From a virus, in the IMG/VR virus record IMGVR_UViG_3300047160_018755, positions 96,001-160,000 of that record: a stretch of 64,000 nt of DNA, one strand, 5' to 3'. A model generated the notes under the pieces. It was not told where the DNA came from. It did not search any database and worked only from the letters and a program-made list of their open reading frames with translations. The translations under genes were made by a program, and so were the position numbers. Of this stretch, positions 5,190 through 40,496 are shown piece after piece; within the stretch, counting starts at the first letter, position 1, and each line of letters opens with the position of its first letter.

Positions 5190-5198
5190 GGCCCATTT

Positions 5199-5474: not shown

Positions 5475-5890
5475 AGATCGCCGTCGTAGGGGCCCGAGCC
5501 TTCCCCAGCCGGGAGAAGGTGCAGACGTTCGTCCGCTTCCTTCCCGGAGACTGGGAGATCGTGTCCGGAGGGGCTCCGGGCGTCGACACTTTCGCCCAAG
5601 ACGCCGCTGCCGAGCAGCACCGACCCTACACCGTGTTCTACGCCGATTGGGATCGCGTAGGACGCGCTGCCGGCATGATCCGTAACACTCAGATCGCCAA
5701 CGAATGCGACGCGCTCGTAGCGTTCGTCCACGGCCCCTCGAAGGGCACCATGGACACCGTCCGCAAGGCCGGCGTCGCCCACAAGCCCATCTGGGTCATT
5801 ACCGTGGACGACGATCTCCCCACTTGGCAGGAGATCGAAGCCAAGGTCCAAGACTACCAGAGACGGCTCAGGGCTTTCCGTTCTGCCTGA
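5471..5890 (+). CDS. SLOG-family (DUF2493/YspA-like) nucleotide-binding protein
   Basis: MKIAVVGAR...IVSGGAPGVDT...AAGMIRN...VAF...SKGT pattern. Confidence 0.8.
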   Translation: MKIAVVGARAFPSREKVQTFVRFLPGDWEIVSGGAPGVDTFAQDAAAEQHRPYTVFYADWDRVGRAAGMIRNTQIANECDALVAFVHGPSKGTMDTVRKAGVAHKPIWVITVDDDLPTWQEIEAKVQDYQRRLRAFRSA

Positions 5891-6671
5891 GGTAGAGAAG
5901 GTACTTGCCCGGGGGGCCGTCGATCACCACGTCGACGGCACCGCGCTGTTGGGCCTCCTCCCAATCCAGCCACCACTCACGTCCACCTTGGATACGCGTC
6001 ATCACCTCGGGGACCTTCGCGTTCATCCGATGGGTCACCCACTCGACGTAGGCTCGGGTAGCGACGCGGATCGTAGCCGCAGAGTTCTCCACCCTCAAGT
6101 CGGTCAAGCGCATGCCGGGCGAGACCATCAGCGACACCTGGTGGATCATGAGCATCGAACGCTTGGTCATCACGCGGTGGTCGCATGACTGGAGCACATA
6201 CATGCCCATGCTCGCCGACGTACCATCGACGACACAGACCACCTTGAACGGAGCCGCCTCGATGGCGCGCGAGATCTCATGTCCATCATCCATGCTACCG
6301 CCAGGCGTGTTCAGCTCGACCATGACGAGGTCGGCGCTGGCCTCGACCGCGGCCTCCATGAAGGCCTTGAACTTGCCCGCAGCGTCGTCGTCGATACTCT
6401 CGGAGAAGCGGTAGTAGGGGACACAGGGGTGCGTGTCACACTCGATCTTGGGCTTCTTGGGCGGCTCGGGCCCCAGAAGGTCCATCAGATTGATGTCCTC
6501 GGGCTCCACCTCGGTCGGCTCCGTGCTTGGAATCGCCGGAGGCGGCGGGGCCGTTTTGGTAGGAGCCGGTGCCATGATTGGCACAAAAGGCGGTGGCTGG
6601 GTCGGCTGGGGTGGCTTGGCGAAGGCCGGAATCGTGAGGAGCATCGACAGAGCAACCAGGGCAGCTTTCAT
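5868..6671 (-). CDS. ClpP/crotonase-fold serine peptidase with signal peptide and Pro-rich linker
   Basis: LNTPGGS, SASMG (catalytic Ser), MLMIH (His); N-terminus MKAALVALSMLLTIPAFA. Confidence 0.8.
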   Translation of the reverse strand: MKAALVALSMLLTIPAFAKPPQPTQPPPFVPIMAPAPTKTAPPPPAIPSTEPTEVEPEDINLMDLLGPEPPKKPKIECDTHPCVPYYRFSESIDDDAAGKFKAFMEAAVEASADLVMVELNTPGGSMDDGHEISRAIEAAPFKVVCVVDGTSASMGMYVLQSCDHRVMTKRSMLMIHQVSLMVSPGMRLTDLRVENSAATIRVATRAYVEWVTHRMNAKVPEVMTRIQGGREWWLDWEEAQQRGAVDVVIDGPPGKYLLYLRQNGKP

Positions 6672-6744
6672 GCGCAAAACCTCCAACTCTATTTCTATCG
6701 AATCTTTCGAAGAAACGCAAGTAGGATCCGTAAGCTACGAAACG

Positions 6745-12902: not shown

Positions 12903-13415
12903 TTACGTGATCGCGGGGAGGTCGGCCGCGGTGACGTTTTCGGAGTTCTGCGTGGACTCGTCGTCCATGCCGAGCGCGACGAAGGTGACGGTCAGCTCTT
13001 CGAGGTTGCGGGCCGAGATCGTCGTCGAGAAGCCGGTGCAGCGCACGTTCTTGAAGTGCGCGATCGAGTCCGGCAGACCGAGGGCCTGGCGCTGGCGGTC
13101 GTAGATGTCCAGCGTGAGGTACTCGGTCAGGAGGAGGTCCTGGAGCTTCGGCAGACCCGCTTCGACCCAAGGGCCGTGCTCGATGACTCGGAAGCCCGAG
13201 CACGTGATCGAGACGAGGTCCATCGACGTGTAGTCCACTTCCGCGGCGCCGAAACGACCCAGCACGTAGGCTGGCTGCGTCTCGTACGTCATGTTGTAGC
13301 TCACGTTGTTGAACAGACCCACGACGTGGCTGGTACCGTCATTCGGGTTGAAGACGTTCAGCTTCGCGCGGGCGCCCGACATCACTTTCGGGGCAGTTTG
13401 CTTGGTGGCGGCCAT
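12903..13415 (-). CDS. Tail tube protein
   Basis: Follows sheath; VMSGARAKL...VGLFNNVSYN...AYVLGRFGAAE resembles SPO1/K-type tubes. Confidence 0.85.
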   Translation of the reverse strand: MAATKQTAPKVMSGARAKLNVFNPNDGTSHVVGLFNNVSYNMTYETQPAYVLGRFGAAEVDYTSMDLVSITCSGFRVIEHGPWVEAGLPKLQDLLLTEYLTLDIYDRQRQALGLPDSIAHFKNVRCTGFSTTISARNLEELTVTFVALGMDDESTQNSENVTAADLPAIT

Positions 13416-13449: not shown

Positions 13450-15981
13450 TTACGAGGACTGCTGGACCTGCGTGATGCTGAACGTGATCGGGATGAAGTA
13501 CAGCGCGGTCGCCGCCTTCACCTCGGCGCTCACCACCATGGCGGGGCCGGAGATCTTGATGACCGGGTTCTTGTAACCCTTCGGCGCGTCGTCGCTGAAC
13601 GCGATGAGCTTCACGCGGCGGAGGTTGTCCATGATGGCGTCGAGGACCGAGAGGGCCTGCGCCACCGTGACGTCCGCGAGGGACTGACCGACGAACGCCT
13701 GCTCCATGATCTGCGCCGTGGTGAGCGAGATGATGTCCGCGTCGTACACAGCCTGGATGCTGTTGTAGACGAAGTTGTTGTCGCGACCGTACGTCGTCTG
13801 GTCGGAGACGTAGCGGAAGCCACCCGTCGGCGGGCGCGCGATCGTGAGGAGACCCGCCTCCAGCGCCAGCTCGACGGCGTCGTCGTCCTGGTCGTTGAAG
13901 TCCCCGGCCGCCTGGAGAGCGCCCGAGATGTTGATCCCCTTGTTGAAGATCGCCTTGTAGAAGCCCGCGGCCTGCATGCCCGCGGCCTTGACCGCGTTCA
14001 TCCAGGGCTGGAACTGCGCGAGCGTTCCGACCGAGTTGTTGTCGCGCACGTCTTGGAACGAGAGCGAGCAGCGGAACGAGGCCAGCTCGCCGGCCGCTTC
14101 CTTCGCGTTCGCGATCGTGTCGCGGAGCGAGAGGAACGCCTGGCGGTTGCGGCGCTTCTTCAGCGTCGACATCTGGAGGACGTGCGAGCGGGTGTTCGCG
14201 TGCACGGCCGCGATGGTGTACGTCGACGACGGATCGGTCAGACCATCCGCGATGTCGGCGCTCGCGTCACGCGAGAACAGCGGCACGACGAAGTTGCCAC
14301 GAACCATCTTGAGCGCGTCGAGAGCTTGCTGGATCAGCGCGTCCGTGGTCGCACCCTTGGCGCCGCCCGAGAGGAACGAGACGCCCACCGTCGGAGCCGG
14401 GAGGCCCTTGATGTCCGCCTTGTTCAGCTGCGTGAGGAAGCCGTTGGCCGCGAGGGTCGTGAAGAACTTGTACGCGTCCTGCTTGATGCGGCCGGGGGCG
14501 ACGCTGGCGAACGTCGAGCAGATGCCGTACGTGCCCTGGTCGAGGCTCGTCGACGGCTGCGATCCGAGGACTGCCGTGCCCGGGGCGCACGTGAAGCCGG
14601 TGAGCGAGTCGAAGTACGCCGCGAGGTCCGCGATCGTCGGGTAGTCCGCGAGGACCGCCGAGAACGTGCCCGCGTTCGCACCACCGACCGCCGTGACCGT
14701 GAGGGTCACGCCGTCGATCGTCGCCGTGGCCGTCGTGCCCTCGTAGCCGATCTCCAGGGCGATGGCGCCGCCCGCGAAGATGTCGTTGACGATGTTGTCG
14801 ACCTGGCGCGACTCCGTCAGGTCCGCGACGTACTCCGTCGCCGACGTGATGAGGTTGCCGTTCGTCGAGTTGGTGATCCAGTTCACCTTCGTCGGAACGC
14901 CGTTCACAAGCTTCCAGCAGATGAAGTTGAGCAGGCCCGTGTGGCTCGACAGCTCGTCGATCTGGAGGCTCTTGCCGGTACCCGGGACGGGGTTGGTGCT
15001 CGCGAGGCTCACCGTGATGGCGCTGAACGTCTGGACGTCCGCCGTGCCAACGATGGCCGTCGCGCCCTTGGACGTCGGCGTGGTCAGCTGGTTCGGCGTG
15101 CCCGCGACGTCGAGGAGCTTCGTCGCGTAGATGGTCTTGCCCGCGCCGCCCGTGCCCGTCACGATGTACGAGCCGGCCGCAGCCGCGTTCGACGTCGCCA
15201 TCGCCGACGTGGTCGGGATGTAGAGCGTGTCACCCGCGACCGGGAGGTGGTCGAAGACCACCGAACGATCGATCTGCACGTTGTTGCCCGTGAGGACCGT
15301 GATCGCGAGCGTGCCCGTGGTTCCCGTCAGCGGGGACTCCGCCGCACCGCCCGTCGTGGTGATGCCCGCGATGCCCGCGAGCGTCGTGATCCACGTGGTG
15401 GGAGGGTCGAGGGCCGCCATGTTGGCCGCGTGCGAAGCGCCGCCGTTGAGGCGGAGGTCGACGTCGGTCGCCGCGATGGGGAGCATGAGCGCGAACGCGC
15501 CCGTGGTCGGAACAGCCTCGGACGTCTTCGCCGTGACCTGGAACGAGATCAGGTTGCCGAGCTTGCCGTAGGACTTGTCCTGGAGCGCGCCGACGCCCGG
15601 GGCGTAGCCCGTGCCGTACTCGGAGCTGTCCCAGTGGTAGAGGTGCGCCGTCGCCTTGGTCGACGGGTTGGTCTTCACGAGGATGAAGCCCGCGGGCGCG
15701 CCCTGGATCTGGGGATCGTTGGCGGGCACAGCGCCGCCGTTGAACGCGTCGACCAGGCGGCCGGACACGTACTTCGCCTTGACGTCACCGATCTGGCCGG
15801 GACCGAAGAAGTTGGACGCGATGTCCGTCTCCTGCGTGAAGTCCGGCCCCTGCTCCGCCTCGCCGACGAGCATGATCACGCCCGTGGTCGCGAGACCCGA
15901 GTTTTGCTGGACGACGTTGTAGCGAGCGTAGCCGCCCGGGATAGTCAGGACGCCAGCGTCGGTGGGGTAATTCTGAGCCAT
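13450..15981 (-). CDS. Contractile tail sheath protein, 843 aa
   Basis: IPGGY...LVGEAEQGP N-terminus; LSGGAKG and DQTT motifs; PITF C-terminus. Confidence 0.92.
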   Translation of the reverse strand: MAQNYPTDAGVLTIPGGYARYNVVQQNSGLATTGVIMLVGEAEQGPDFTQETDIASNFFGPGQIGDVKAKYVSGRLVDAFNGGAVPANDPQIQGAPAGFILVKTNPSTKATAHLYHWDSSEYGTGYAPGVGALQDKSYGKLGNLISFQVTAKTSEAVPTTGAFALMLPIAATDVDLRLNGGASHAANMAALDPPTTWITTLAGIAGITTTGGAAESPLTGTTGTLAITVLTGNNVQIDRSVVFDHLPVAGDTLYIPTTSAMATSNAAAAGSYIVTGTGGAGKTIYATKLLDVAGTPNQLTTPTSKGATAIVGTADVQTFSAITVSLASTNPVPGTGKSLQIDELSSHTGLLNFICWKLVNGVPTKVNWITNSTNGNLITSATEYVADLTESRQVDNIVNDIFAGGAIALEIGYEGTTATATIDGVTLTVTAVGGANAGTFSAVLADYPTIADLAAYFDSLTGFTCAPGTAVLGSQPSTSLDQGTYGICSTFASVAPGRIKQDAYKFFTTLAANGFLTQLNKADIKGLPAPTVGVSFLSGGAKGATTDALIQQALDALKMVRGNFVVPLFSRDASADIADGLTDPSSTYTIAAVHANTRSHVLQMSTLKKRRNRQAFLSLRDTIANAKEAAGELASFRCSLSFQDVRDNNSVGTLAQFQPWMNAVKAAGMQAAGFYKAIFNKGINISGALQAAGDFNDQDDDAVELALEAGLLTIARPPTGGFRYVSDQTTYGRDNNFVYNSIQAVYDADIISLTTAQIMEQAFVGQSLADVTVAQALSVLDAIMDNLRRVKLIAFSDDAPKGYKNPVIKISGPAMVVSAEVKAATALYFIPITFSITQVQQSS

Positions 15982-16023: not shown

Positions 16024-18144
16024 TTAACGATTCTTTTTGGCGCGACGCTTTTCTCCGATTCGGAGCATCGTGCGGTTGTGGTTGATGCTGTTGAAGCCCT
16101 TGTCCAGCTCGTCGGCTTCCAGATCTTTCTTGGTGAGCGAGAGAGACGCCTTCTTCAGGTCCTCGCTGCGCTTGAGCGGGAGCGCGCCATGGAAGCGCTT
16201 GCTGGTGACCTTCGCGGCCTCCGGCTTCGGAGCCTCGGGCTTGACGGCTTCCTTCTCGCCGCGACGGAGCGGCATCGCGCCGTGCATGCGAGCGCTGCTG
16301 GTCTGACCCTGCTGCTTCCACTGCGGAGCACCCGCGATCGCCATCTGCGGCTTCGGCGAGTGGAACATCGACATCAAGCCGCGGAGGAACCCGACGCCGC
16401 CGCGCTGCTTGGAGGCAGCCGCGAGGTTGAGGTTGTCGCGCACGCCGCTGAGAGCGTCCGCGCCGCCACCAGCCGGAACCGGGCTGGCCTTGAGGCGCTG
16501 ACCGAGCGTCTGGGGCTTGGCCGGAGCCGCGGCAGGCGCCGCCAGATCCGACACGTCGATGTCGACGGACTCGGGGCTGCCGCCCGGACGCAGAGCCTTG
16601 ACGTCCGCGAGGCTGTTGGCGACAGCCGGGTGAGCCGGAGCCGCGCGCTTCGCCTGGATCGCCGCGAGGTCGCCCTTGAGCTTCTGCACCTTGGCCGCAG
16701 GAGACGGACCAGCCGCCTTCGTCGCCGGAGCGGGAGTCGCACCCTTCGCAGGCGCAGCGCCCTTCGCCGGGGCCGCGACCTTGTGCTTGTCACCACCGCC
16801 CTGGCCGACGGGCTGCTTGCCGCCGACGCCCTTGCCCTTCGGAGCCTTCGCCTTTGAGGCGCCACCCACGCCCGGAAGAGCCATCTGGTCCTTGCGAAGC
16901 TCCGTGCCCTTCTTGATCTCGCCGCCCGAGCCCTGCTTGGCCACGGAAGCGTCCTTGCCAGCCTTCGGGAGCTTCGTGCCCTTCACGGCAGCGGCGGGAG
17001 CCGCGTGCTGCGCGGGGATGGTCTCACCACCCTTCGCCACCGGAGCCATGCTGTCCTTCAGAGCGGAGGGCATGTTCTTCTGGCTCGCGTGACCCGGGCC
17101 GCCGTAGCGCTTGTCGCCAGCGCCCATCTCGGCTTTCGCGTTCGGGATCTCACCAGCCACGGACACCGTCGGACGGCCCATCGCGTGGACCGGCTTGCGC
17201 AGCGGCTTGGGGGCGCCGACGACAGCCGACGTTCCACCCATCGACGGGTGCGCGCCGAAGACCGACTTCGCGCCACCCAGCTCCGCGTTGGCCTGGTGGA
17301 CCGGCGTCACGGGGGCGGGCTTCGGGGGAGCAAGCGCAGCGGCGCTCGACGACGGCATGTGCTTCGCGATCGCCTCCAGCTCGCCCTTCTTGTGGTTGAC
17401 GGTGCCGTTCGCGATGGCGTTCGCCGTGGCGTAGGCCTTGGCCTTGCCTTCCTTGTCGTGACCGTACTCGTCCTTGAGCTTGTGCATCGTCTTCTCGGAG
17501 ATGCCCTCGGGGGTCTTCTTCCCCAGCGGCGCGCCCTGAGTCACGCCGTCCTTGTGCTCCACGTACTCGCTGTGACCGTCCTCGTCGTGGTCACCGTCAC
17601 CATCGGGATCCTTGTGCTTGCCGTACACGTGCTCGTAGCCGCACGCCTTGCACATCTCGGACTTCTCCGCCATCGCCAGCGGGGCGGTGTCGCCGCCACC
17701 GGCCGGACCGACGCCAGGGCCGGGACCGTAGCCGAGCTGCGCGTTCTTCTGGAGGGTCGAGATGCACTTGCAGGCACCGTTCACGTCGGGACCACCGCAG
17801 AGAGGGCACAGCTCGTGCTTCTCCAGCTTGCGTTCCTTCGTCGACGCCTCGCGGGCGCGCATCTCACGGATCTGAGTTTCGGTCTTGACCAACACCGCCT
17901 TCAGGTCGGTTGCGAACTTCTGAAGGGGCGCGGAAAGCTTGGATTCGTTTTTATTCATTTTGGGTGTGTACTCGCCGTAGCATCCCAGACAGGTCCGTGA
18001 CCCGTCCTTATGAGGGGTTGAATCTTTGCTTCCACACTTCGGACACGCCTCGTCGGTCTTCAGTTTCCCGTCTCGACGAGCCGCGGTGATCCCGGCATTC
18101 TCTTTACGACGTGCCGCCAATTCGTCTTCAGGCTGCTTGGGCAT
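16024..18144 (-). CDS. Basic low-complexity protein with zinc fingers; probable internal head protein
   Basis: Lys/Ala/Pro/Gly-rich; CPKC...PHKDGSRTCLGC; several LxK motifs; AATCTT upstream. Confidence 0.7.
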   Translation of the reverse strand: MPKQPEDELAARRKENAGITAARRDGKLKTDEACPKCGSKDSTPHKDGSRTCLGCYGEYTPKMNKNESKLSAPLQKFATDLKAVLVKTETQIREMRAREASTKERKLEKHELCPLCGGPDVNGACKCISTLQKNAQLGYGPGPGVGPAGGGDTAPLAMAEKSEMCKACGYEHVYGKHKDPDGDGDHDEDGHSEYVEHKDGVTQGAPLGKKTPEGISEKTMHKLKDEYGHDKEGKAKAYATANAIANGTVNHKKGELEAIAKHMPSSSAAALAPPKPAPVTPVHQANAELGGAKSVFGAHPSMGGTSAVVGAPKPLRKPVHAMGRPTVSVAGEIPNAKAEMGAGDKRYGGPGHASQKNMPSALKDSMAPVAKGGETIPAQHAAPAAAVKGTKLPKAGKDASVAKQGSGGEIKKGTELRKDQMALPGVGGASKAKAPKGKGVGGKQPVGQGGGDKHKVAAPAKGAAPAKGATPAPATKAAGPSPAAKVQKLKGDLAAIQAKRAAPAHPAVANSLADVKALRPGGSPESVDIDVSDLAAPAAAPAKPQTLGQRLKASPVPAGGGADALSGVRDNLNLAAASKQRGGVGFLRGLMSMFHSPKPQMAIAGAPQWKQQGQTSSARMHGAMPLRRGEKEAVKPEAPKPEAAKVTSKRFHGALPLKRSEDLKKASLSLTKKDLEADELDKGFNSINHNRTMLRIGEKRRAKKNR

Positions 18145-19340: not shown

Positions 19341-20336
19341 TTACTCCAGCGGGAAGACGCCCCAGGGATCGTCGGGCGTAGGCGGTGACTGTCCTTGGTC
19401 GTTCACGGGCGGCAACTGGTCGTCGTCGCCGACGCCAGAGATCTCGATGGCCGAGAAGTCGGGCTGCGTTTCGACCACCTCGACAAGTGGGTTGACGCTC
19501 TTCGGCCAGTAGTAGCGCGCGTAGCCGGTGACCGTGATGAACCGCGAGAACACCACCTCGTTCTCGAATTCGAGGTTGCGACGGAAGTCGGTCGACGAGA
19601 GCTGCGTGCGCTCGAAGCCGCGCGTCTCGAACAGCTCCTGCTTGTACTTGAGGAGCATGAACTGGAGGATCGAGTGCAGGTAGAGCAGGTACGAGGGGTC
19701 TCCCTGCACGTGAATGCCGATCTGGTAGACCTCCTTGAAGGTCACGCTCTCGATGGTCGTCGCGTAGCGCTCCTTGGGACCGATGATGACGGCATCGGTG
19801 AAATCCGCGACCGTACCGGGCTTCAGCGAGATCTCGTCGTCGCCAAGATTCTGCTGGATGGGGAACTGACGACCGGCGCGCGTCTGCACGATCATGCCGG
19901 CAGCGACGGTGCTGTCGCCCATCAGAGCCTCCGGCAGTACCATGATGCCCGAGGTGGGCGAGTACGCGAGCGGTGTGAACTGCGGCGTCAGCGCGGGCCA
20001 GTCACCTGCGGTCGGCTCCTGCGGAACGTAGTGGACGTCGCCGTGGGTCTGGTCGGACTCCTGCGACTCCTGGAGCGAGATGGTGATGCACGGGATCGCT
20101 TCCTCGGCCACGCGGAAGTTCATGAACACCGGGACGTCGGTCTTCAGGAACCACTCCTTCGCCAGCTCGATCTGCTTCTCGCCGTACACGTCGCGAGTCA
20201 GCTCGTCCTCGGCCAGGTAGTGGAAGATGTAGTTGAGCAGCTTGGGGTCGTTACGGACGTTGTCCATGGAGCGGATGATCGCCGTGCGTACGACGACGTC
20301 TCCCTGGAATACGCCTTTGATTTCCGTATCGGCCAC
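19341..20336 (-). CDS. Virion protein, probable tail completion/neck
   Basis: Position between neck and sheath genes; beta-rich C-terminus; late motif. Confidence 0.55.
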   Translation of the reverse strand: MADTEIKGVFQGDVVVRTAIIRSMDNVRNDPKLLNYIFHYLAEDELTRDVYGEKQIELAKEWFLKTDVPVFMNFRVAEEAIPCITISLQESQESDQTHGDVHYVPQEPTAGDWPALTPQFTPLAYSPTSGIMVLPEALMGDSTVAAGMIVQTRAGRQFPIQQNLGDDEISLKPGTVADFTDAVIIGPKERYATTIESVTFKEVYQIGIHVQGDPSYLLYLHSILQFMLLKYKQELFETRGFERTQLSSTDFRRNLEFENEVVFSRFITVTGYARYYWPKSVNPLVEVVETQPDFSAIEISGVGDDDQLPPVNDQGQSPPTPDDPWGVFPLE

Positions 20337-20371: not shown

Positions 20372-20695
20372 ATGGACGAAGATGTCGCTTTCACGGTCGA
20401 AGTCTTCCAGAAGGTCCTGGCGAACGAGAAGCACCGCCTGGCTGTCGGCGCCGTCCTCAGGCGCTACATCCACGCGCAGCTCGCGAAGGGCATCGAGCCC
20501 GACCACTACCGCATGAAGTGGATGCACAAGGGTATCTCGCGGATGATCCACGAGCTGGAGCTGTTCGGCCGGGAGTTCAACGCCGCTCACCCGAGGGACA
20601 AGTTCTCCAAGGGCGACATGATCGACGTCGCCGAGTCAGCCGTGCTGACCCTGCGGAACTACATCGACGCGGAAGAGGACCCCGACAGCAACTAG
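20372..20695 (+). CDS. Hypothetical protein on the opposite strand
   Basis: Strong codon bias; AATCTC 6 nt before ATG. Confidence 0.7.
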   Translation: MDEDVAFTVEVFQKVLANEKHRLAVGAVLRRYIHAQLAKGIEPDHYRMKWMHKGISRMIHELELFGREFNAAHPRDKFSKGDMIDVAESAVLTLRNYIDAEEDPDSN

Positions 20696-21543
20696 CTGTT
20701 GAGGTCGCTGACGGCCTTGTCGAAGAGGGCGGGGGCGACTTCCTTCTGCCACAACTCGACGGCTTCCTCGGCTGCCTTTTCGAGGATGTTCACCGCGGCG
20801 TTGCCCGGGTGCTCCCACTTCGCCATGCCCGACTGCGATTCGCTCGCCACGCGGAAGGTGAGGATCGAGCGCTTGGTCTTCCCGTCCTTGCCCTTCTTCT
20901 GGTAGATGGAGACGCCCTGGAGGAACGGGATGCCCGACTTCTGTCCGGGGCTCTTCGAGCCCTGCATGACCTCGCCCACGGGACCGCGGCGCTGGCCGGC
21001 GCCTGGGTCCTGCTTGAGGGGCGCGTTGGAGATCGTGAACGAGTGGAGCTTGCCGGACTTGTCCGTGCCGTCCGCGTTCTTCTCGATCTTGCCGAAGGGA
21101 ATGCCGCGAGCCTTCAGCTCTTTCTTGACAGCGTTGACAAGATCTTGCTGAGCAGCAGTACGCCCAGTACGACTATCATCGCCTTGAGGCCCCATAGGAC
21201 CGTGGTTGAATGGAACAGTGATGTACTTGCCGTTCTTACCCGACTTCGCTTTCGGCGAGGCGAGGAGGTACTTGAGCATGTCGAACGCAGATTGACCATC
21301 GTCGATCCATCGCACTTTGGCGTCGAGGGTGACCAGCCAGGTGTCGTCGCCGACCTTCTCCGTGCGAAGACCGTCCTGGTACATCTTGCGGCGCGTGTGG
21401 AGCTTGTCCGCGGCCATCTCCTTCGCTTTCGCGACGACCATCTTGGACAGCTCTTCGCCTGCGTCGTTGGCGATCTTCTTGAGCGCCGGACCGACCTCCA
21501 TCAGCTCGTTCAGCTGACTGAGATCAACGTTTATAGAGAACAC
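20692..21543 (-). CDS. Neck/head-completion protein
   Basis: KLHTRRKMY...FDM...YITVPF...FRVASE...WEHPG pattern typical of myovirus neck proteins. Confidence 0.6.
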   Translation of the reverse strand: MFSINVDLSQLNELMEVGPALKKIANDAGEELSKMVVAKAKEMAADKLHTRRKMYQDGLRTEKVGDDTWLVTLDAKVRWIDDGQSAFDMLKYLLASPKAKSGKNGKYITVPFNHGPMGPQGDDSRTGRTAAQQDLVNAVKKELKARGIPFGKIEKNADGTDKSGKLHSFTISNAPLKQDPGAGQRRGPVGEVMQGSKSPGQKSGIPFLQGVSIYQKKGKDGKTKRSILTFRVASESQSGMAKWEHPGNAAVNILEKAAEEAVELWQKEVAPALFDKAVSDLNS

Positions 21544-21965
21544 GCGACACCATCGGCTCGCTGAGCCGTTCGAATGCGGTGACAACAGGCGCACACCAAC
21601 TCACACTTTGCCAGCTCTTCTTTAAGAGCTTCCATCGAATGTGTCCATGAAACCATCTGAGCAATTCCAAACCTCTTCACGCCACGCACGTGATCGAAGT
21701 CCATTGCAACACCAGGGAAACGCCTACCACAGTCGGTGCAAGGCTTTGACTTAAGCTCTGCCACCAGACCGCGCTTCTCCAAGATCTTTACCTCAGCCGC
21801 TTCTGTCATGCGATGGGTTCGCTTGTACTCGCGATGACACGGGAAGCACCACTGGTAAACGACCTTTCCATTACGGATGTAGCTTTGAAACTCTTCCACA
21901 GGTTTAGGAACCGAGCATTGAGCGCAGATCCTCTTGCCATCTACAGTCTGAACACGCCTGGGCAT
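21531..21965 (-). CDS. HNH endonuclease
   Basis: CTDCG...MDFDHV...KCELVCACCHRIRT; lower GC. Confidence 0.88.
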   Translation of the reverse strand: MPRRVQTVDGKRICAQCSVPKPVEEFQSYIRNGKVVYQWCFPCHREYKRTHRMTEAAEVKILEKRGLVAELKSKPCTDCGRRFPGVAMDFDHVRGVKRFGIAQMVSWTHSMEALKEELAKCELVCACCHRIRTAQRADGVACSL

Positions 21966-21989: not shown

Positions 21990-23264
21990 TTAACTGCTCG
22001 AAGGCTCGCGGGAGGAGACGGGATGACTGTTCGGGCCGATGATGGGCGCGTCCTTGTCCTGCGCCTGCACCATGCCGGAGTCGACCTGTTTCCAGCCCGT
22101 GCTGCCGTCACCGTGCTGGACCTTCACCTTGTCGCCGACCTGTGAGCCGAGCGGGAAGTTCATCTTGTGGTGCGGGGGCGTACCTTCGATCGGGTTGCTC
22201 GACTTCTCCAGTCCGTAGTCCTTGAAGCAGCCCTTGCAGGTCTTGGAGCCGTCCTTGTGCGGGATGAACTCCTTCTCCTCGCAGTGCGGGCAGGCATCTT
22301 CCGACTTCGCCATCGCTTGCTTGATGACGTCGGGCTCGTCGTCCATCGGAGGACCATCGCCCATCACTTCCTTGCCGAGGAGCACGACGCCCTGGACGAG
22401 GCCGATGATGGCCGCGTACGCATCGGGAGCGTACTGCTGGAGACGCTGGATGTCGGGCAGCTGCTTGCGGATGTTCGTGAGCGCGTCCGTGACCTTCTTC
22501 TTGACGGACTCGGTCTGCTTCTGACCGTCGCCCGCAGCCTGCTCGTCCTGCTTGCTGGAGTCCTCGGCCGCGTCATGGAGCTGCGACTCCATGTCCTGGT
22601 TCATGTTCTCCATGTCGCCCGCGGCGTGAGTCATCTCGGGCGAGGCCGGCTTGGGATCGTCACCCAGAACATCGCCCACATGCTTCATGTCGGTGAAGCC
22701 CGGGTCGTGCTGGACAGCGAAGCCCGCGTTGGGACCGGAGAGCTTCGCCGTGTTGTGCTCCAGGACTTTCTGCGTGTCCTTGCCGCCGGCCGCCTTGTGC
22801 TCTGGCGGCTTGGGCGTGTCGGCCTTGGCGAGGTACTCGTCCGTCAGCTTCTCCTGCTCGGACTTGGGGGCGTCGACCGCGCGCTGGTACTCGGCCGCCA
22901 TCGCGTCTTGGTCCCACACCAAAATCTGGTTGCCGCCGCGGAGCTTTGCGACCACGAGGGCCTTGGCGGAGTCGGACATCTGCATGCCCACGCCCACGGA
23001 GACGGTGGCGCCCACCAGGTTCGAGTACTGCTTCGCGATCGAGGGCATGTCGGCCAGCTTGCTGGCGTCGACCACGATGCGACCCTCGTCGCCACCCATC
23101 TCGATCACCGAGCCGCCGTTGTTCACGGCGAAGCTCTTCCACAGCTCGTTGCCGGCGTTGATGGCCTGGTCGACTCGACGAACCTCACCCACGTCGTTCG
23201 CGAGCACTGCTCGCCCGACGCGGCGGCCGATCTTGTCGCCGTCCCAGCAAACGAAAACGTCCAT
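21990..23264 (-). CDS. Probable virion protein with N-terminal mCpol (minimal Cas10-like nucleotide cyclase) domain
   Basis: WDGDKIGRRV...LANDV...GGSVIEMGGDEG...TVSVGVG...AKALVVAKLRGGNQI; then acidic linker, zinc finger and LxK[S/A] motifs. Confidence 0.75.
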   Translation of the reverse strand: MDVFVCWDGDKIGRRVGRAVLANDVGEVRRVDQAINAGNELWKSFAVNNGGSVIEMGGDEGRIVVDASKLADMPSIAKQYSNLVGATVSVGVGMQMSDSAKALVVAKLRGGNQILVWDQDAMAAEYQRAVDAPKSEQEKLTDEYLAKADTPKPPEHKAAGGKDTQKVLEHNTAKLSGPNAGFAVQHDPGFTDMKHVGDVLGDDPKPASPEMTHAAGDMENMNQDMESQLHDAAEDSSKQDEQAAGDGQKQTESVKKKVTDALTNIRKQLPDIQRLQQYAPDAYAAIIGLVQGVVLLGKEVMGDGPPMDDEPDVIKQAMAKSEDACPHCEEKEFIPHKDGSKTCKGCFKDYGLEKSSNPIEGTPPHHKMNFPLGSQVGDKVKVQHGDGSTGWKQVDSGMVQAQDKDAPIIGPNSHPVSSREPSSS

Positions 23265-26941: not shown

Positions 26942-27925
26942 TTACTTGCGCCCCACAGCTTCTAGGAAGGTTACGACCGTCTCCCGATCCCAATCCTCAC
27001 CGAGGTGAAGCTCACTGTACTCCGGATGGTCGGTGACGTCAACTGACTTGGCGAGCGCTCGGAAGCAGAGGCACCCGACGAACTTGTGGTCCGCGTTGAA
27101 CTGGCGCATCGAGCACACCGGGCACGCCCGCTCCTGCTCCGAGCGCGTGAGCTTCACGGTCGACGACGTGACGGGCTTCGCTGGCTTCGCGCCAGGCGAG
27201 GCAGCCATCTTCGGGAGCTTCTGCTGCGTGGTGGGCGCAGCTGACGTCGCCGTCGGAGCTACAGGCGCTGCGGGAGCGACGGGACCGGCGGTCTTGCCGC
27301 TGCCCTCGCCCATCGCCTTCTTCTCCAGCTCCTGCTTCACGACCCGAAGGAGCGCCTTCGGATGCTTCAGGTGACTCTTGTGCTCAGGACAGGCGACGTA
27401 GCCGGTCTCCTTCACGTTCTTCGGATCGTAGTGGGTCGCCGGCTTGTCGCAGAAGTCACACTCGTGAGGAAGGTCCGACGGGGGCGTCTCTCCTGATCCA
27501 TCGCTGAGCTGCGCCTTGACCAGACTCTCGCCAACGAGGTGCGCCTTCGCCATCAGATCGATGGACTTGCCGAGACGCTGTAGCTCGGTATTGCGGCCGT
27601 TGCTGAACAACAGCGAGTCGAGACCCATCGCCGTCGACAACGCGCCAGCGACGTGGAAGATCGACTGCTCCTCGAACTTGTACATGTCCTCGCCGAGGGT
27701 GACATTGCCCGTGAAGCCCTTCTCCGACTTCGCGTAGCTCAGACTGCACTCGCCAAAGCCTGGGACGGTTCCGGCGTACGCTGGAACGGCCTCCAGCATC
27801 GCGAGGATGGTGCGCGGCACGATCATCTGCGCGAGGTACTCGGAGCGACCTGCGGCTTTCGCAAGGGCGAGAGCTGCGTCAGCGCCAAGAACGCCGATCA
27901 GAAACTGTGCACGGTTGAAAGACAT
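26942..27925 (-). CDS. Probable internal head protein with zinc fingers
   Basis: LAKA, YAKS, LGKS, MAKA, LVKA, LAKS motifs; CDFC and CPVC fingers. Confidence 0.6.
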   Translation of the reverse strand: MSFNRAQFLIGVLGADAALALAKAAGRSEYLAQMIVPRTILAMLEAVPAYAGTVPGFGECSLSYAKSEKGFTGNVTLGEDMYKFEEQSIFHVAGALSTAMGLDSLLFSNGRNTELQRLGKSIDLMAKAHLVGESLVKAQLSDGSGETPPSDLPHECDFCDKPATHYDPKNVKETGYVACPEHKSHLKHPKALLRVVKQELEKKAMGEGSGKTAGPVAPAAPVAPTATSAAPTTQQKLPKMAASPGAKPAKPVTSSTVKLTRSEQERACPVCSMRQFNADHKFVGCLCFRALAKSVDVTDHPEYSELHLGEDWDRETVVTFLEAVGRK

Positions 27926-27940
27926 CTGCTTCACCAAAGA

Positions 27941-30393: not shown

Positions 30394-33300
30394 TTAGGTC
30401 GTTACCCACAACGAGTTGATGATCAAATCGAGGGGCTCGTTGCCGAGGCGGACAGACACCTTCTGCAAGCGATCCATCGTGGGAATCGTGTTGATTCCGT
30501 AGCGCTGGCAGATGAGGCGCACGTCACCCGGAACGATTTTCCCAAACCAAGTCTTCAGCTCCTCAGCAACAGACGCCGGCACCCGCGGCAACGACTTGAG
30601 CTTCGTTGCGGTGTCGAGCTGGTGGAAGTTCTCGTCGAGGCACCACGCGCGCAGGTAGTACGGCACGAACGAGTTGCCGTCGTGGCCAGGATCGAAGCTC
30701 GGGCCGGCGAAGGCCGAGCCGTGATCGATGAGCTGCACGTCACCCTTCGGGTCGACCATCACGTTCTGGCCGTGCGAGTCCGGGTTGCCGAGGATGTAGT
30801 CGATCACGGCCCACTTGTGGACCAGACCCTCGTGCAGGTACTTGTGCAGGACGCTGCGAGCAGTGCCCGGCTCCTTGCGCTCCATCTCGTCGAGCGTCTT
30901 GAAGTCGAGAGCGAGCAGGTGGAGCGCGGAGTACATCTTATCGTCGATGATGACAAGCTCCGCGCGCGGGTACCACTTGCCGATCTCCCACTGCTTCGCG
31001 ATGTGGTAGAACGCGGCCTCGCGAGCGTTGGGGTTCGACGGGTCCTCCTTCGAGCCTGCGGCTCCGCCAGCTCCACCGCTGCCGGACTTGAGCAACAGCG
31101 TCGTCTTCGTCTGCTCATCGTAGGCGATGAACGATCCCTTCGAGTGCTTGCCGCCGAGCGCGACCGGGAACACGAAGTGCGTCTTGAACGCACGCTCGAT
31201 CATTCGCGCCACATCCTCACCCTCAAGATGCGCGGTCACGACCTTCGAAGCGGTCGGCGTCGGCTCCATGATCGGATCCGACTTCGTCAGCCCGCAGATG
31301 GCGTGCAGGGCCTTCAGGTTCTCTTCGCTGCACGGCAGGCCGTACGCCTGGAGCGCAGCACGATCCACGTCACCATCCTCGAAGTAGAGGGCCTGGCGCA
31401 TCGACTCGTCCGAGATGAGCGCTCCGTTGGCGAGGAACTTGGCTGCCTTGAATGCGCGGTGGTTCGCCGGCTCGAAGCCGAGCTGCATGGTCACGATCGG
31501 ATGCTTCGCCACGCCCTCCATCGGAGCCGAGGCGGCCGGGGTGAGCAGATCGAGTGCCTTCGAGAGCATCTTCTGGAGGTGCTGCGGGCCGAAGGCGGGG
31601 TTCGACATCACGCCGGCACGAAGGAGCGTGTCCGGGTGCAGGGCGTGGGTCGCCTCGTCAGCCAGCGTCGGAGACACGCTCTTGTTGCGCAGGAGCGCCC
31701 CGATGAGGCCCGGCGCGGCCGAGGTCGGCAGCAGCTGGGCCTTGGGGAGCAGGTCCTTGAAGATCTCGGCCAGAGCCGGCGTCGACAGACCTTGGTTTGA
31801 CTCCAAGGCGCGCTCCGCGAGCGCCACCACGTGGGGCTCGCCGCGGTCGGCAGCGCGCTGGACGAGGGCCCGGAGGGAGCCGTAGGGCAGCTCCAGGTGC
31901 TCCACAGCGCGCGAGCCGAGGTCTCCTGACCCGCCGCCAGGGACCGTCAGGGCCGTCTTCAGGGCGTGATCCAAGACATCCGCGGCGGCCCTCTTGTGGC
32001 TCAGAATCGCGATTCGCGAATCGTGGACGACATCCGGGTCCATGTACATGGAGCGAAGGAGCCCTTCGGGCGCCTCTGGATGAGCCGCGATCTGGGCGAC
32101 GGTCGCCGCGTAGCAGGCGGGGCCGCACATGCGCGCGGCGCGCGCGAGCGCGGTGAAGTGGTAGGGCTGGAGCTTCCCGGGCTGGCCCAGGAAGAAGTCC
32201 TTCTGGGCCTGCGGGTAGGCGCCGTTCTTGCCGACCACCGCCTCCATCAAGCTCAGCGACTGGGAGGGCCCGAAGAGCGGGTGGTTGATGGCGGCCTGGT
32301 AGATGGACGGGTCAGGATCGAGGGCGGCCTGGAAGAGGTGCTCGGGACGGACCGTGTCGAGCTTGAGGGCCATGCCGCGCTCGATCGGGTCCGGGTTGTC
32401 AAGCATGCGGAAGACCTCGTCCTCCGCCTTCGCAAGATGCGGCAGATGGGTACCGACCATGGCGGCCTGGTCGACATGCTCGCTGGGCAGCTCGTATGCG
32501 TCGAGCTTGCCGCCACCCTCGGCCTTCGCCGCGTGGTACTTGTGGTTGCCGTCGACGACCTCGTAGAGCCCCGTCGAGTTCCGCTTCACTACGAGGGGTG
32601 GGAGTTTCCCCTCCTTGCGGTACATCTTGCGGTAGAGGTCGTAGCGGGACTTGTTCTTGACGTCGTTCTTCGGGACGAGCTTGTCGGTCGTCACCGTGAT
32701 CGGCTTGATGGTCGGGCCGTAGTGGTCCTTCAACGCGGACACGTAGCCGGCGTCGTAGTTGGGGCGGTCCGGGTGCTGGATCGAGGGGATGGAAATGCGG
32801 CTCGTGCCCCAGTCGTCCGAGTGCCAGACCTTGGGCTCCTTCTTTTCGAGCGTGTCCCAGTCCTCGGACTTCTGGACCTTGAAGATCTGGCGCAGGAGGT
32901 TCGTCGAATCCTTCGGGCCATGGAGGTGGTTGTAGACCTTCGGCGGAAGGCCTTCCTCGACGTCGATCCACTCCCACTCAGAGACCTCGTCATCGGGATC
33001 GTTCTTCGGATGCGGAGAGCCGGACACGTACGCGCTGAAGCAGTACGCCTCGGTGCCGTCGGGGAGCGTGTAGTTCTTGAGGTGCGACAGGCTCACCGCA
33101 TGTAGCCCCGTCTCCTCGTACAGCTCGCGGGTCGCGCACTGCTCGGGAGACTCGCCCTCCTCGAAGTGGCCGGCGGGGAGCGTGTAGAAGTCGTTGTCGT
33201 TGCGCTTGCCGACGAGCAGCTGCCCCTCGCCGTTGTAGCAGGTGATGATCGCGACGCGATTGGCGTGGTTGCGGAACTTGTTCTCCAGCTCCTTCGCCTC

Positions 33301-33561
33301 GTCGTGTGCCTGCTCGTACTGCTCGTGCTTGTCGTGCATGAGGTGCGCTTCGCGGCACTCGTGCAGAGCAACGAGCGGGATCTCATCTCGCGGCGTGTTG
33401 TTGTCGATCCAGATCTGGCCCTGCGGAATCCACTTGTAGCGCTCCGGGTTGCCGCCTTGGACGAAGTCCGAGTCGTGCTCGTTGCGGATGACCTCTCCGT
33501 CGACGAGAAAGATCTTCAGCCCGTGAGGACAGGCTCCGATGGGTTGCTTGCGGACATCCAT
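30394..33561 (-). CDS. Multidomain (polyvalent) protein: HE-motif domain, Nudix, ParB-like, helical repeats, PI3K/HipA-like kinase
   Basis: GHFEEGESPEQCATRELYEETGL Nudix box; PPLVV...VVDGNHK; DYILGNPDSHGQN...LIDHG. Confidence 0.8.
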   Translation of the reverse strand: MDVRKQPIGACPHGLKIFLVDGEVIRNEHDSDFVQGGNPERYKWIPQGQIWIDNNTPRDEIPLVALHECREAHLMHDKHEQYEQAHDEAKELENKFRNHANRVAIITCYNGEGQLLVGKRNDNDFYTLPAGHFEEGESPEQCATRELYEETGLHAVSLSHLKNYTLPDGTEAYCFSAYVSGSPHPKNDPDDEVSEWEWIDVEEGLPPKVYNHLHGPKDSTNLLRQIFKVQKSEDWDTLEKKEPKVWHSDDWGTSRISIPSIQHPDRPNYDAGYVSALKDHYGPTIKPITVTTDKLVPKNDVKNKSRYDLYRKMYRKEGKLPPLVVKRNSTGLYEVVDGNHKYHAAKAEGGGKLDAYELPSEHVDQAAMVGTHLPHLAKAEDEVFRMLDNPDPIERGMALKLDTVRPEHLFQAALDPDPSIYQAAINHPLFGPSQSLSLMEAVVGKNGAYPQAQKDFFLGQPGKLQPYHFTALARAARMCGPACYAATVAQIAAHPEAPEGLLRSMYMDPDVVHDSRIAILSHKRAAADVLDHALKTALTVPGGGSGDLGSRAVEHLELPYGSLRALVQRAADRGEPHVVALAERALESNQGLSTPALAEIFKDLLPKAQLLPTSAAPGLIGALLRNKSVSPTLADEATHALHPDTLLRAGVMSNPAFGPQHLQKMLSKALDLLTPAASAPMEGVAKHPIVTMQLGFEPANHRAFKAAKFLANGALISDESMRQALYFEDGDVDRAALQAYGLPCSEENLKALHAICGLTKSDPIMEPTPTASKVVTAHLEGEDVARMIERAFKTHFVFPVALGGKHSKGSFIAYDEQTKTTLLLKSGSGGAGGAAGSKEDPSNPNAREAAFYHIAKQWEIGKWYPRAELVIIDDKMYSALHLLALDFKTLDEMERKEPGTARSVLHKYLHEGLVHKWAVIDYILGNPDSHGQNVMVDPKGDVQLIDHGSAFAGPSFDPGHDGNSFVPYYLRAWCLDENFHQLDTATKLKSLPRVPASVAEELKTWFGKIVPGDVRLICQRYGINTIPTMDRLQKVSVRLGNEPLDLIINSLWVTT

Positions 33562-38081: not shown

Positions 38082-39479
38082 TTACTGGAGGTTGTCGACG
38101 AGGACGTTCTTGCGGGGCTGCATCACGGCCAGCGTGCAGAAGCGGAAGTGCGCCTCGGGCTGGCTGAGGTCCGTGACGGCGAGCTTGAGGCGGCTGTAGG
38201 GAGCCAGCTCCTTCATCGCCATCGTGTCGCCCTCGATCAGGAAGCCCGTGACGAATCCCGGGATCTTGTTGCCGAGGTCCGTGAAGGTCACGGCCGCGCC
38301 CGCGTTCGCCGCGATGCGACCGATGAACTTCTCCGTGCCCGCCGCGCCGCCCGCGAGAGTGCGGTAGACGTTGAAGTAGCGGGTCGTGGAGACCGGCGTG
38401 AGGGAGATGGTGACCTTGTCACCCGCGTTGGTGATCGTCACCGACTGAGTCGCGCAGGCCACGCCCTCGCCCAGCTCGCTGCACGCCGTCGCCTTGTAGA
38501 TGTAGACGTCGTTCGCGAGGAAGTTCGAGACCGCGTTCGCGTCGGTCGCGCCCGTCGGAGCACCCATCGTCGGGGCCGAGGGAGCGGTCGAGCGCGCCGG
38601 AGCGGGCTTGGCCTTGCCACGGAGGAACATGCTGCCCTCGATCTCGACCGTGCCGCCCGAGACCCACTGCTTGCGGAGGTCGCCGCCCGTCGCGCCCTGC
38701 GGGCTGCCCGCGAGGATGATCTTCTCCTTGCCGAAGACGATCTTGTTGTACGCGCTCAGGACCTTCGGGTCGACGACGAGCTTGTCGGCGTCACCGAAGT
38801 TGAGGGCCGAGCGAACGCTCGCGTCCTCGACGATGTCCTGCGTGAGGGGACCGCCGCCCGCGATCACGACCGTGTCGTCCGAGCCGAACTCGGCGAACAT
38901 GAGGTCGCGCGCCTGGCGCTGGTTGTCCGACTGACGGACCTGGAGATCCAGGCCGTGCATGTTCGGGAGCGGAGCCACCGAGAGCGGGTTGCCGTCGAAG
39001 ACGCCCGCGTTCGAGAAGTCCGCGAGGCCGCGGAACAGGTCGAACTCGATGTCGCCCGCGATCTTCTTCGCCGCGTTGGCCGCCTCGCGCTCCTCCGCCT
39101 TCACGCCGTCGACCGTGGTCACCATGTTGGCGACGATGGTCACGCGACGCGTGTGCGAGTAGAACGCCATCGGGACGGTCACACGGACGTAGTCCGCGTT
39201 CTCTTCCTGGCCGATCGCGCCTTCGAGCTGGGCCGAGCCGCCGAAGATGCCGTAGCTCAGCTGACGATCGAACTGGGCGAGCGTCGACTTGCACGACTCG
39301 ACCTTGACCATCTTCTGGAGCTTGATGTGGGACTCGTCGAAGGTCACGACCTGCATGACGTTGGACAGGTCCTCCGTCTGGAGGGCCGCGCCTTGAACGA
39401 GCGTGCTCGGAGCGGCGTTGTAGTTGCCGGCCTCCAAGGCCTTGGTGAGGGACTGGAGTTCAGCGATCAGATCGGACAT
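38082..39479 (-). CDS. Major capsid protein (SPO1/Twort-like)
   Basis: GAALQTEDL...TF...LQKMV...STLAQFDR pattern matches K/A511-type MCP; downstream of scaffold. Confidence 0.92.
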   Translation of the reverse strand: MSDLIAELQSLTKALEAGNYNAAPSTLVQGAALQTEDLSNVMQVVTFDESHIKLQKMVKVESCKSTLAQFDRQLSYGIFGGSAQLEGAIGQEENADYVRVTVPMAFYSHTRRVTIVANMVTTVDGVKAEEREAANAAKKIAGDIEFDLFRGLADFSNAGVFDGNPLSVAPLPNMHGLDLQVRQSDNQRQARDLMFAEFGSDDTVVIAGGGPLTQDIVEDASVRSALNFGDADKLVVDPKVLSAYNKIVFGKEKIILAGSPQGATGGDLRKQWVSGGTVEIEGSMFLRGKAKPAPARSTAPSAPTMGAPTGATDANAVSNFLANDVYIYKATACSELGEGVACATQSVTITNAGDKVTISLTPVSTTRYFNVYRTLAGGAAGTEKFIGRIAANAGAAVTFTDLGNKIPGFVTGFLIEGDTMAMKELAPYSRLKLAVTDLSQPEAHFRFCTLAVMQPRKNVLVDNLQ

Positions 39480-39521: not shown

Positions 39522-40496
39522 TTACTTGAGCAGGTGGGCGATCTGGTCGACCTTCACCTTGCCGAGGTCGAAATCGACGACGAGCGTCTTCTCCGACTTG
39601 GACAGGGTTCCGGCAACGACCTTCTCACGGAGCTTCGCGCGAACCTGCTCGCGCGACATCTGGGTCACATCGGCGGCGGGGGCCGCGGCGGGGATGTCGG
39701 CGGCGAACTTCACCGACTTGCGGAGGGGAGCCTCCAGGACGTGCTTGACGGCCTTGACGAGCGGGAGGACCGCCTCCTGCACCTTCGCGTTGATCTCGGC
39801 CGTGATCTCGGCCTCGCTCTTGTGGAGCGACTCGCCACCCTTGACCTTCGAGAGGTCGCCGTTGGCCTTGGGATCGTTGCTCATGCCCGACTCCGCCTTC
39901 AGCGCGGGCGCCGGAGCGCTCGCATCCGCGGGGGGAGCCGACGCCGCCGGGGGCGGCGCGCCAGCAGAGGCATCCGGGCCCGCCGGAGGCGGGGCGCCAG
40001 CGCCAGCGTCCGCACCAGCACCCGCGAGGGTCTGCATGAGGACCTGCTTGAGGCACATGTAGTGCAGCTTCTGGTCTTCCGGCGAGAGCTTCGAGTACTC
40101 CGCCATCAGAGCCTGCGGGTCGATCGGACCCTGGTCGGCCGCGGGGTCACCGCTGCCGTCCGGAGACGCCGAAGCGTCCGGAGACGCCGAGCCAGCGTCC
40201 GCCGGGGGCGGAGCCGAACCGTCGTCACCCGCGGGCGACGCCGAAGCGTCGGCCGGAGGGCCGTCCGAACCCGTGGCGTCGGGCGAAGCCGAGGCCGCAT
40301 CCGGAGACGCCGAGGCCGCGGAGGTGTTGTCCCCCGTGGGATCGGTGTCCGACGCGTCCGACTTGTCGTCCGCCGGGGTGTCCTCGCCGGGGCGAGCCTT
40401 GGCGAGTTCCGACTTCGCGAGATTGCCCAGCTCCTTCTCGACCTCCGCGAGGATGGCCGAGAGCTGGCTCTCGTCGATCTGTGCAGTGTTGGACAT
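39522..40496 (-). CDS. Capsid scaffold protein
   Basis: Acidic ASPDA-repeat low-complexity protein just upstream of MCP; six LxK[S/A] motifs. Confidence 0.7.
   Translation of the reverse strand: MSNTAQIDESQLSAILAEVEKELGNLAKSELAKARPGEDTPADDKSDASDTDPTGDNTSAASASPDAASASPDATGSDGPPADASASPAGDDGSAPPPADAGSASPDASASPDGSGDPAADQGPIDPQALMAEYSKLSPEDQKLHYMCLKQVLMQTLAGAGADAGAGAPPPAGPDASAGAPPPAASAPPADASAPAPALKAESGMSNDPKANGDLSKVKGGESLHKSEAEITAEINAKVQEAVLPLVKAVKHVLEAPLRKSVKFAADIPAAAPAADVTQMSREQVRAKLREKVVAGTLSKSEKTLVVDFDLGKVKVDQIAHLLK

Follow-up and report, generated by a model that had tools for sequence, protein, structure and literature searches.

What would a phage gain from an mCpol cyclase, an enzyme known so far solely as the bacterial half of the Panoptes defence? 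The question is raised by a minus-strand gene (21990..23264) in a stretch of viral DNA of 64,000 nucleotides (nt), hereafter the window, which corresponds to bases 96001-160000 of the IMG/VR record IMGVR_UViG_3300047160_018755 and whose positions serve as our coordinates. The record is complete (182,279 bp, with direct terminal repeats) and is that of a 182-kb soil phage, kin of Myxococcus phage Mx1. As detailed below, the gene encodes an mCpol with a complete catalytic set at the N-terminus of a longer protein of the late virion-gene block, and we tentatively read this protein as head cargo from which a working cyclase would be cut free.

The longest frame of the open reading frame (ORF) opens at GTG 23348, while the true start is ATG 23264, as judged from an AGGGA located 6 nt upstream, from the position of this ATG 8 nt past the stop of the preceding ORF and from the homologues, which start at the equivalent Met (MDVF/MxVF). 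The gene and the parts that identify the enzyme are as follows.

21990..23264, minus strand: whole mCpol gene, 424 amino acids (aa; protein P0001), stop codon 21990-21992 included; has homologues of the same architecture
22905..23264, minus strand: mCpol palm domain, residues 1-120; Pfam PF18182, PDB sequence match and fold match
23235..23243, minus strand: D8-G9-D10, first metal-binding acidic site; Asp6 of KpOptS aligns to D8
23082..23096, minus strand: G57-G58-D59-E60-G61, hairpin motif of GGDEF/Cas10 type; Asp57 of KpOptS aligns to D59

Pfam family PF18182 (mCpol) matches residues 5-115 with an E-value of 1e-12 and 48.9 bits (gathering score: 26.4), in an alignment that spans profile positions 2-112 of 114. 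The CARF_HEPN_mCpol model of PADLOC matches the same stretch weakly, and GGDEF profiles score below their thresholds on the protein. Moreover, the sequences of the solved mCpols 9NWN and 9MNR/9PD0 match residues 4-118 (E about 4.5e-4), the identity to the solved Panoptes enzymes being about 24%. In the Panoptes enzyme KpOptS, the active site is made of Asp6 and Asp57, while S30 and N34 contact the adenine (PMC12657218); in the HMMER alignment, these four residues fall on D8, D59, D32 and N36 of the phage protein, respectively. An AlphaFold2 (AF2) model built on 33 full-length relatives has a predicted local distance difference test (pLDDT) of 94-98 over residues 1-130, and when this model is submitted to Foldseek, the top PDB structures are those of KpOptS (9PD0/9MNR/9NWN), with template modelling (TM) scores of 0.83-0.89 (target-normalised) and root-mean-square deviations of 1.6-1.9 Å over about 117 columns; GGDEF domains, class III cyclases and Cas10 come next. 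A first, sequence-only reading of the locus had called the domain from a few peptide strings and both catalytic Asp sites, and had proposed a profile search and a structure prediction as checks. All the strings are indeed present, with GGDEG encoded exactly at 23082-23096, and both checks came out in its favour: the profile match is well above the gathering score, and the predicted palm fold is closest to OptS (TM 0.89, 1.6 Å), with Cas10 further down.

The catalytic residues are strongly conserved in the family, as examined in 218 members whose full-length identities range over 23-84%. D8 is kept in 205/208 aligned members and D10 in 207/208, G58, D59 and E60 are each kept in 215/216, and K107 is invariant (216/216); overall, about 98% of the members retain every catalytic residue. 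The two base-contact positions do vary, position 32 being S in 119 members, D in 73 and N in 10, and position 36 being D in 89, N in 55 and E in 43. Fixed catalytic residues combined with variable base contacts are what one would expect of cyclases that are active and whose products diversify, and the window's copy is, as far as sequence can tell, a true mCpol with a complete catalytic set. No second mCpol was found in the phage genome, where the sole other PF18182 match, below threshold, is the GGDEF domain of a 1437-aa protein.

The family to which this protein belongs is large. A full-library HMMER search with residues 1-147, whose hits are representatives of clusters at 50% identity, returned 823 representatives at E<=0.001 and 587 at E<=1e-10; in all of the best 150 matches, the mCpol domain is N-terminal, within proteins of 135-1297 residues, and a search for shorter family members yielded fragments only. 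The general layout is one of fixed ends (mCpol N-terminal, a conserved tail C-terminal) and a swapped middle: among 57 long members, the inserts include GNAT (10), DUF5661 (8), ART-PolyVal (1), NUDIX (1) and ParB_N (1), while the window's member holds the mCpol and a zinc ribbon, with no further effector-type domain identified. Among 50,697 deposited phage genomes, the sole relative is that of Mx1 (27.6% identity over residues 1-298), and no cellular relative emerged from 185,579 species genomes scanned by pattern, which indicates that the family is viral and almost wholly uncultured.

Beyond the palm domain, the protein is a succession of modules separated by short joint motifs.

22824..22904, minus strand: two-helix extension, residues 121-147; AF2 helices 119-131 and 136-145, K139 invariant
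22821..22835, minus strand: Y144-L-A-K147-A148, first joint motif and putative head-protease site, with a predicted cut after K147
22602..22820, minus strand: variable linker, residues 149-221, predicted disordered (pLDDT 31-43)
22362..22601, minus strand: conserved acidic/helical region, residues 222-301; helices 222-267, 269-278 and 280-301
22302..22313, minus strand: M318-A-K-S321, second joint motif, from the alignment of relatives
22227..22292, minus strand: four-Cys zinc ribbon (C325, C328, C343, C346), a variable insert in the window's family member
22200..22211, minus strand: L352-E-K-S355, third joint motif, from the alignment of relatives
21993..22199, minus strand: conserved C-terminal tail, residues 356-424 (69 residues), LPxGS...GKxKV.H.DG..W..V.SG...HPVSSR.P

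Y144 and K147 of the first joint are conserved in at least 90% of the sequences, and 143/218 members have the form Y-L-x-K-[A/G/S] after their mCpol domain. The linker is poorly conserved save for an AGF patch, and the helical region 222-301 (pLDDT about 65-85) is kept in relatives, including Mx1. According to a profile hidden Markov model (HMM) of the tail, the latter stands at the extreme C-terminus of 190/218 members, whatever the length of the protein, and a joint motif lies at most 30 residues before it in 146 of these 190. Modelled alone from a 27-sequence alignment, the tail yields a beta hairpin only (pLDDT 66); that it is a docking segment folding on a partner is a possible role, offered as a guess. 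No longer protein that carries it turned up in a search. We also dropped as chance a likeness of LPxGS to the cargo-loading peptide of encapsulins, since no other putative cargo has LPxGS.

The zinc ribbon is replaced by other sequence even in relatives that are 64% identical. The module of about 50 residues that contains it (residues 318-367; 22164-22313, minus strand) has a paralogue at the N-terminus of a 706-aa zinc-ribbon protein encoded upstream of the sheath (window about 17917-18066, minus strand; 40% identity, E 1.3e-9), which suggests, from the two sequences, an exchange of modules between late genes of one genome.

The joints conform to a more general motif, [LM]-x-K-[SAG], the frequency of which was compared with 200 shuffles per protein. 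In head-region genes, it occurs 46 times vs. 21.2 expected, and in the remaining genome 38 times vs. 43.4 expected. The major capsid protein has one site, at residues 11-14 (LTK/A, the slash marking the putative cut), and a 53%-identical homologue retains LMK/A behind a preceding peptide of different length. The portal bears the motif at residues 11, 46 and 665, hence at both ends, and a scaffold-like protein of the head region (324 aa, Ala/Pro/Asp-rich) has six sites vs. 0.85 expected, while five are found in a 331-aa protein and several in a 1055-aa protein. Counted in homologues less than 60% identical to those of this phage, the sites reach 2.64 times the expected number in the mCpol family and 6.99 times in the 331-aa family, as against 1.15 times in the sheath and 0 in the tube. 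Enrichment in head genes and placement at module joints are together what a prohead protease working on the contents of the head would leave behind, and these statistics make L-x-K-[S/A/G] a candidate head-protease site, to be cut after the Lys. Protease-cut ejection proteins are known in giant phages (PMC10052503). Genes bearing L-x-K-[S/A/G], all on the minus strand, lie at 38082-39479, 39522-40496, 46690-48837, 26942-27937 and 30394-33561.

As for the enzyme, two candidates for the head-maturation protease emerge from sequence comparisons, namely a ClpP-family protein and the N-terminus of the 1437-aa head protein, of which residues 1-306 match the annotated prohead protease of Mx1 (34.5% identity) and the C-terminal end is the GGDEF domain mentioned above. 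The gene for the ClpP-family serine protease (5868-6686, minus strand; CLP_protease, E 7e-16) is distant from the portal and capsid genes. A match to NfeD1b_N also turned up in the sweep of the phage genome.

Many of the genes around the mCpol gene are head and virion genes.

46690-48837, minus strand: portal, Pfam Phage_portal
38082-39479, minus strand: major capsid protein, phrog_752 (E 3e-51)
Other head-region genes: adaptor-like genes, the 1055-aa NUDIX / ParB-like / kinase-like protein and a virion structural protein (phrog_1004)
20692..21594, minus strand: f300 family gene (phrog_16819), found after the mCpol gene at all the related loci examined
19341..20336, minus strand: 331-aa gene (f331, phrog_1000), second conserved downstream gene of the same late block
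13450-15981: sheath; 12903-13415: tube; reached by the late block downstream of f331

The head genes are followed by a deoxynucleoside monophosphate (dNMP) kinase and a DNA ligase on the opposite strand, by a small ORF (121 aa) and by the mCpol gene, after which come an HNH endonuclease, the 300-aa and 331-aa proteins, two variable proteins, the sheath and the tube. The mCpol gene is co-directional and tightly packed with the late structural genes. The order mCpol protein-f300-f331-sheath-tube is kept in Mx1, where the orthologue lies five genes upstream of the tail sheath as in the window's phage, in one NCBI metagenome-assembled contig and in 29 IMG/VR contigs, while the identities of the neighbouring genes in these loci fall to 25-30%. 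A scan anchored on f300 failed for want of a conserved stretch; anchored on the sheath, the search gave 384 related contigs, and in the best 80 of them, wherever the DNA upstream of f300 is readable, a mCpol-family gene or its tail is found directly there, with one clear exception to which we return. On this sequence evidence, the gene sits in the late virion-gene block and is near-core in its clade, yet dispensable in some phages. Anti-defence genes tend to be patchy in their distribution, so that the near-core status of the mCpol gene speaks for a role of importance in most infections.

The HNH gene between the mCpol gene and f300 (endonuclease VII type; 21531-21965, minus strand; phrog_2255, E 4.5e-27) has no counterpart in the close relatives L010 and L012, where f300 comes directly after the mCpol gene, and thus looks like a homing-endonuclease insertion; in other relatives (e.g., L007), an Endonuclease_7 gene lies just upstream of the mCpol gene.

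How would such a protein be used? Quite possibly, though we would stop short of calling it probable, it is a late-block polyvalent protein whose first 147 residues form a working mCpol cyclase and which travels as processed head cargo. Briefly, the protein would be loaded into the prohead, its C-terminal tail and/or helical middle acting as the docking part, and the head protease would cut after L-x-K at the joints, releasing a free mCpol of about 147 aa, a size near that of bacterial mCpols (about 115-135 aa). The free domain would then dimerise like OptS and make a cyclic di- or trinucleotide from nucleoside triphosphates (NTPs), with no need for an activating signal, be it in the next host once ejected there or in the producing cell at a late stage. 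This nucleotide would disturb nucleotide-based signalling or immunity of the host, and the whole protein would also serve a catalysis-independent role. Such a second role follows from the copies that are retained with an eroded site. In Mx1, the orthologue (WNM70340.1, 468 aa, annotated as "hypothetical protein"; L001:8001-9407) reads WSID for WDGD and LGAVG for GGDEG and has lost the Y-L-x-K-A joint, but retains the N-terminal fold, the helical middle and the C-terminal tail; to judge from these substitutions, the copy of the only cultured carrier is probably inactive, whereas that of the window is intact. Of 46 viral loci checked, 36 keep the full catalytic set, the GGDE hairpin is lost in L065/L066, L088 and L095, and six further loci differ or are unreadable at one position, mostly position 8.

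Several observations weigh against the packaged cyclase. Since about one fifth of the viral loci deviate, as does Mx1, catalysis is dispensable in some lineages, at least by sequence. The exception noted above, contig L097 (IMGVR_UViG_3300049489_000327), lacks the mCpol gene at its usual place, where a gap of 530 bp, richer in AT and with a small ORF, separates the dNMP kinase gene from f300 (L097:4540-5070); the gene was either naturally lost or never gained. Moreover, neither Pfam nor PHROGs recognises a protease family in the 1437-aa protein. Finally, the idea that the tail is a common head-targeting tag had to be rejected, as it is confined to the mCpol protein and absent from other putative cargo (the tail HMM matches no other protein of the phage). 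A bolder version of the proposal, in which the packaged, active mCpol floods the entered cell with a nucleotide that mimics or competes with immune messengers, is in our opinion unlikely; Panoptes-type guards would then be held shut, or the effectors of CBASS (antiphage signalling systems based on cyclic oligonucleotides) and of type III systems would be blocked.

At face value, a gene that is near-core and fixed in position inside a structural block might rather encode a structural or assembly protein of the neck or head, for which the mCpol fold would be an inherited scaffold and its chemistry incidental. The retention of the protein with a dead site in Mx1 and eroded ones in the four loci named above fits this explanation, as does the conserved tail, which resembles a segment folding on a partner. 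However, a mere scaffold would not need the catalytic residues that nearly all of the 218 members keep, the gene is missing from the L097 contig, and the inserts of the family are enzymes rather than structural repeats, so that we regard a mainly structural role as unlikely, on a par with the flooding of the cell. Slightly less credible to us is a protein that is never packaged and acts late in the producing cell, be it on lysis timing, in blocking superinfection or in silencing a late abortive system. Its tight, co-directional packing with late structural genes and the GGDEF cyclase encoded in the same head module would suit such a protein, but the joint motifs are common to the capsid, portal and scaffold-like proteins and not to tail proteins, the inserts are of polyvalent type (ART-PolyVal included), and the searches with Cap15_CD_rec and SAVED found no receptor encoded by the phage. 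Very unlikely, and the least plausible of all, is a non-signalling nucleotidyltransferase, involved for instance in priming or in the modification or protection of packaged DNA ends. The palm fold is common to polymerases and Thg1 (PMC12657218), the protein would, if packaged, share the compartment of the particle that holds the DNA, and the genome carries direct terminal repeats; yet the nearest structures are by far the mCpols that form cyclic dinucleotides, followed by GGDEF domains and class III cyclases, and the family shows no conserved DNA-binding module.

The sequence-only reading had gone further and suggested that an effector-less phage copy could top up or mimic the inhibitory signal of Panoptes, or else jam CBASS or type III receptors; it had overlooked the modular, polyvalent layout of the protein and the joints that resemble cut sites. 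The premises of this suggestion largely stand: the gene is phage-encoded and has no CARF or 2TM effector beside it, its neighbours being the 121-aa ORF, the HNH endonuclease and genes of the structural module, and Cap15_CD_rec and SAVED have no match in the whole 182-kb genome, in searches run without a positive control. As to the "probable virion protein", its gene does lie in the virion-gene block, and membership of the virion itself is plausible. In its specific form, the mCpol would be a Panoptes antidote that resupplies the decoy nucleotide removed by a sponge or nuclease of the phage, so that OptE or CARF-TM stay closed. Operons of Panoptes types I and II occur in Myxococcota, namely in Archangium, Corallococcus, Nannocystis and Sorangium (Supplementary Table 3 of PMC12657218), hence the target exists in the presumed host phylum, an assignment that rests solely on kinship with Mx1. 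Moreover, mCpol enzymes are described as constitutively active, Acb2 sponges trigger Panoptes (PMC12657218, PMC12657230), and the phage carries a 68-aa protein of the Acb2 family. The latter came to light when 131 small proteins from across the genome were run against Pfam; its gene lies outside the window (G000:C1:39993-40199, plus strand; locus L125:1486-1692), and its product matches Acb2_Tad1_hairpin (PF24729; 40.6 bits, cut-off 27), with 9PTQ, Acb2 homologue 43, as its best PDB match (E 8.8e-6).

Nevertheless, we consider the antidote improbable. The Acb2/Tad1 family is absent from Mx1 and from four complete relatives with an intact mCpol, which also led us to reject an obligatory sponge-cyclase pair. 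The closest solved sponge, Acb2_43, binds 3'cADPR and not cyclic dinucleotides, and a sponge that did bind the decoy would soak up the phage-made copy as well. Panoptes is said to be relatively rare, whereas hundreds of lineages make up the clade in which the phage gene is near-core. Finally, no Tad2-like protein, gp49_66 or 2H esterase was found in the phage genome; a pair made of the cyclase as writer and a 2H esterase as eraser was likewise rejected, for neither 2_5_RNA_ligase2 nor LigT_PEase has a match there.

If the packaged cyclase does flood the cell as outlined, this would be the first virus to counter nucleotide-based immunity by making a signal instead of destroying or sequestering one. 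More generally, were the enzyme active and delivered, signal synthesis would join nucleases, sponges and blockers in the anti-defence repertoire, and one enzyme fold would be found on both sides of the phage-host conflict. Its carriers form a large, almost uncultured clade of soil phages of roughly 170-180 kb, in which the catalytic site is under strong purifying selection, and as Mx1, the only cultured one, has a dead copy, intact sequences such as that of the window are the ones suited to experiments. A review covering the field up to October 2026 asks, as a question, which counter-measures phages will evolve (PMC13712596). The main texts of this review and of three experimental Panoptes papers contain nothing on viral mCpols, the Mx1 protein appearing as a single line, "mCpol+?", in Supplementary Table 3 of PMC12657218. 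Our literature search found no paper combining mCpol with polyvalent proteins or Panoptes with a phage-encoded cyclase, and the myxophage papers that it returned do not mention the mCpol-type protein of Mx1.

Regarding expression, no sigma-70-like promoter was found near the mCpol gene. The 12-mer GATTCGATAGAA occurs 11 times in the window with at most one mismatch (vs. 0.19 expected), at 5197, 6693, 8138, 8588, 8967, 12793, 23680, 37997, 56860, 56897 and 59330; these sites are mostly intergenic and just upstream of genes, including one 20 nt before the dNMP kinase gene and others ahead of tRNA blocks. The distribution of the 12-mer points to a probable role as phage promoter or regulatory box, and the box is absent upstream of the mCpol operon. 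The genome-wide sweep of small proteins further revealed a nucleoside diphosphate kinase, a peptide deformylase, a protein with the C-terminal domain of ribosomal L7/L12, two R2K ATP-grasp proteins, a dCMP deaminase, and SprT-like, Peptidase_C39 and HD_4 domains.

How does this gene compare with known systems? Like the Panoptes enzymes OptS (KpOptS and VnOptS; PMC12657218, PMC12657230, PMC13577387), the phage mCpol has a palm fold with two acidic positions, and its base-contact positions are variable, as theirs are. Neither has a sensor domain, from which the phage enzyme, too, is presumably constitutive. In contrast to OptS, it is a phage product and part of a fusion with about 300 extra residues, where OptS is a stand-alone protein of 115-135 aa, and it carries the two-helix extension ending in Y-L-x-K-A. 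Its hairpin is a full GGDE, whereas that of KpOptS reads AADG. Moreover, no OptE, CARF-TM, SAVED or HEPN partner adjoins the gene or was found in the genome. The phage gene is thus not a Panoptes defence operon, which pairs the cyclase with a sensor-killer partner and is encoded by a cell. With GGDEF cyclases and the Palm2 domain of Cas10, it shares the palm superfamily and the GGD[E/D] hairpin, but it lacks the extra helices and the I-site of the former, and the other domains of the latter.

As regards the fate proposed for the protein, Alt and the internal proteins of phage T4 are head cargo processed by a protease. The T4 head protease cuts after Glu, at L/I-x-E, and that of giant phages at A/S/G-x-E; the motif proposed here, unlike theirs, ends in Lys. 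The ejection proteins of SPN3US and phiKZ-like phages are loaded into the head, processed by the prohead protease at a short recurring motif found in capsid and scaffold proteins as well, and ejected together with the DNA (PMC7411985, PMC10052503), a course that is predicted from sequence for the mCpol protein. The closest parallel in architecture is with polyvalent proteins, in which effector-type domains are joined in phage polypeptides linked to head genes (PMC5512222), as are the GNAT, ART-PolyVal, ParB_N and NUDIX domains in relatives of our protein. GGDEF and RelA-SpoT are rare nucleotide-generating modules among polyvalent proteins, for which an interference with host responses has been speculated (PMC5512222). 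Our family differs in its fixed ends and in its mCpol, which is not among the domains described there. Overall, the gene appears to combine two known kinds, an mCpol cyclase and a polyvalent phage cargo that would be processed by a protease.

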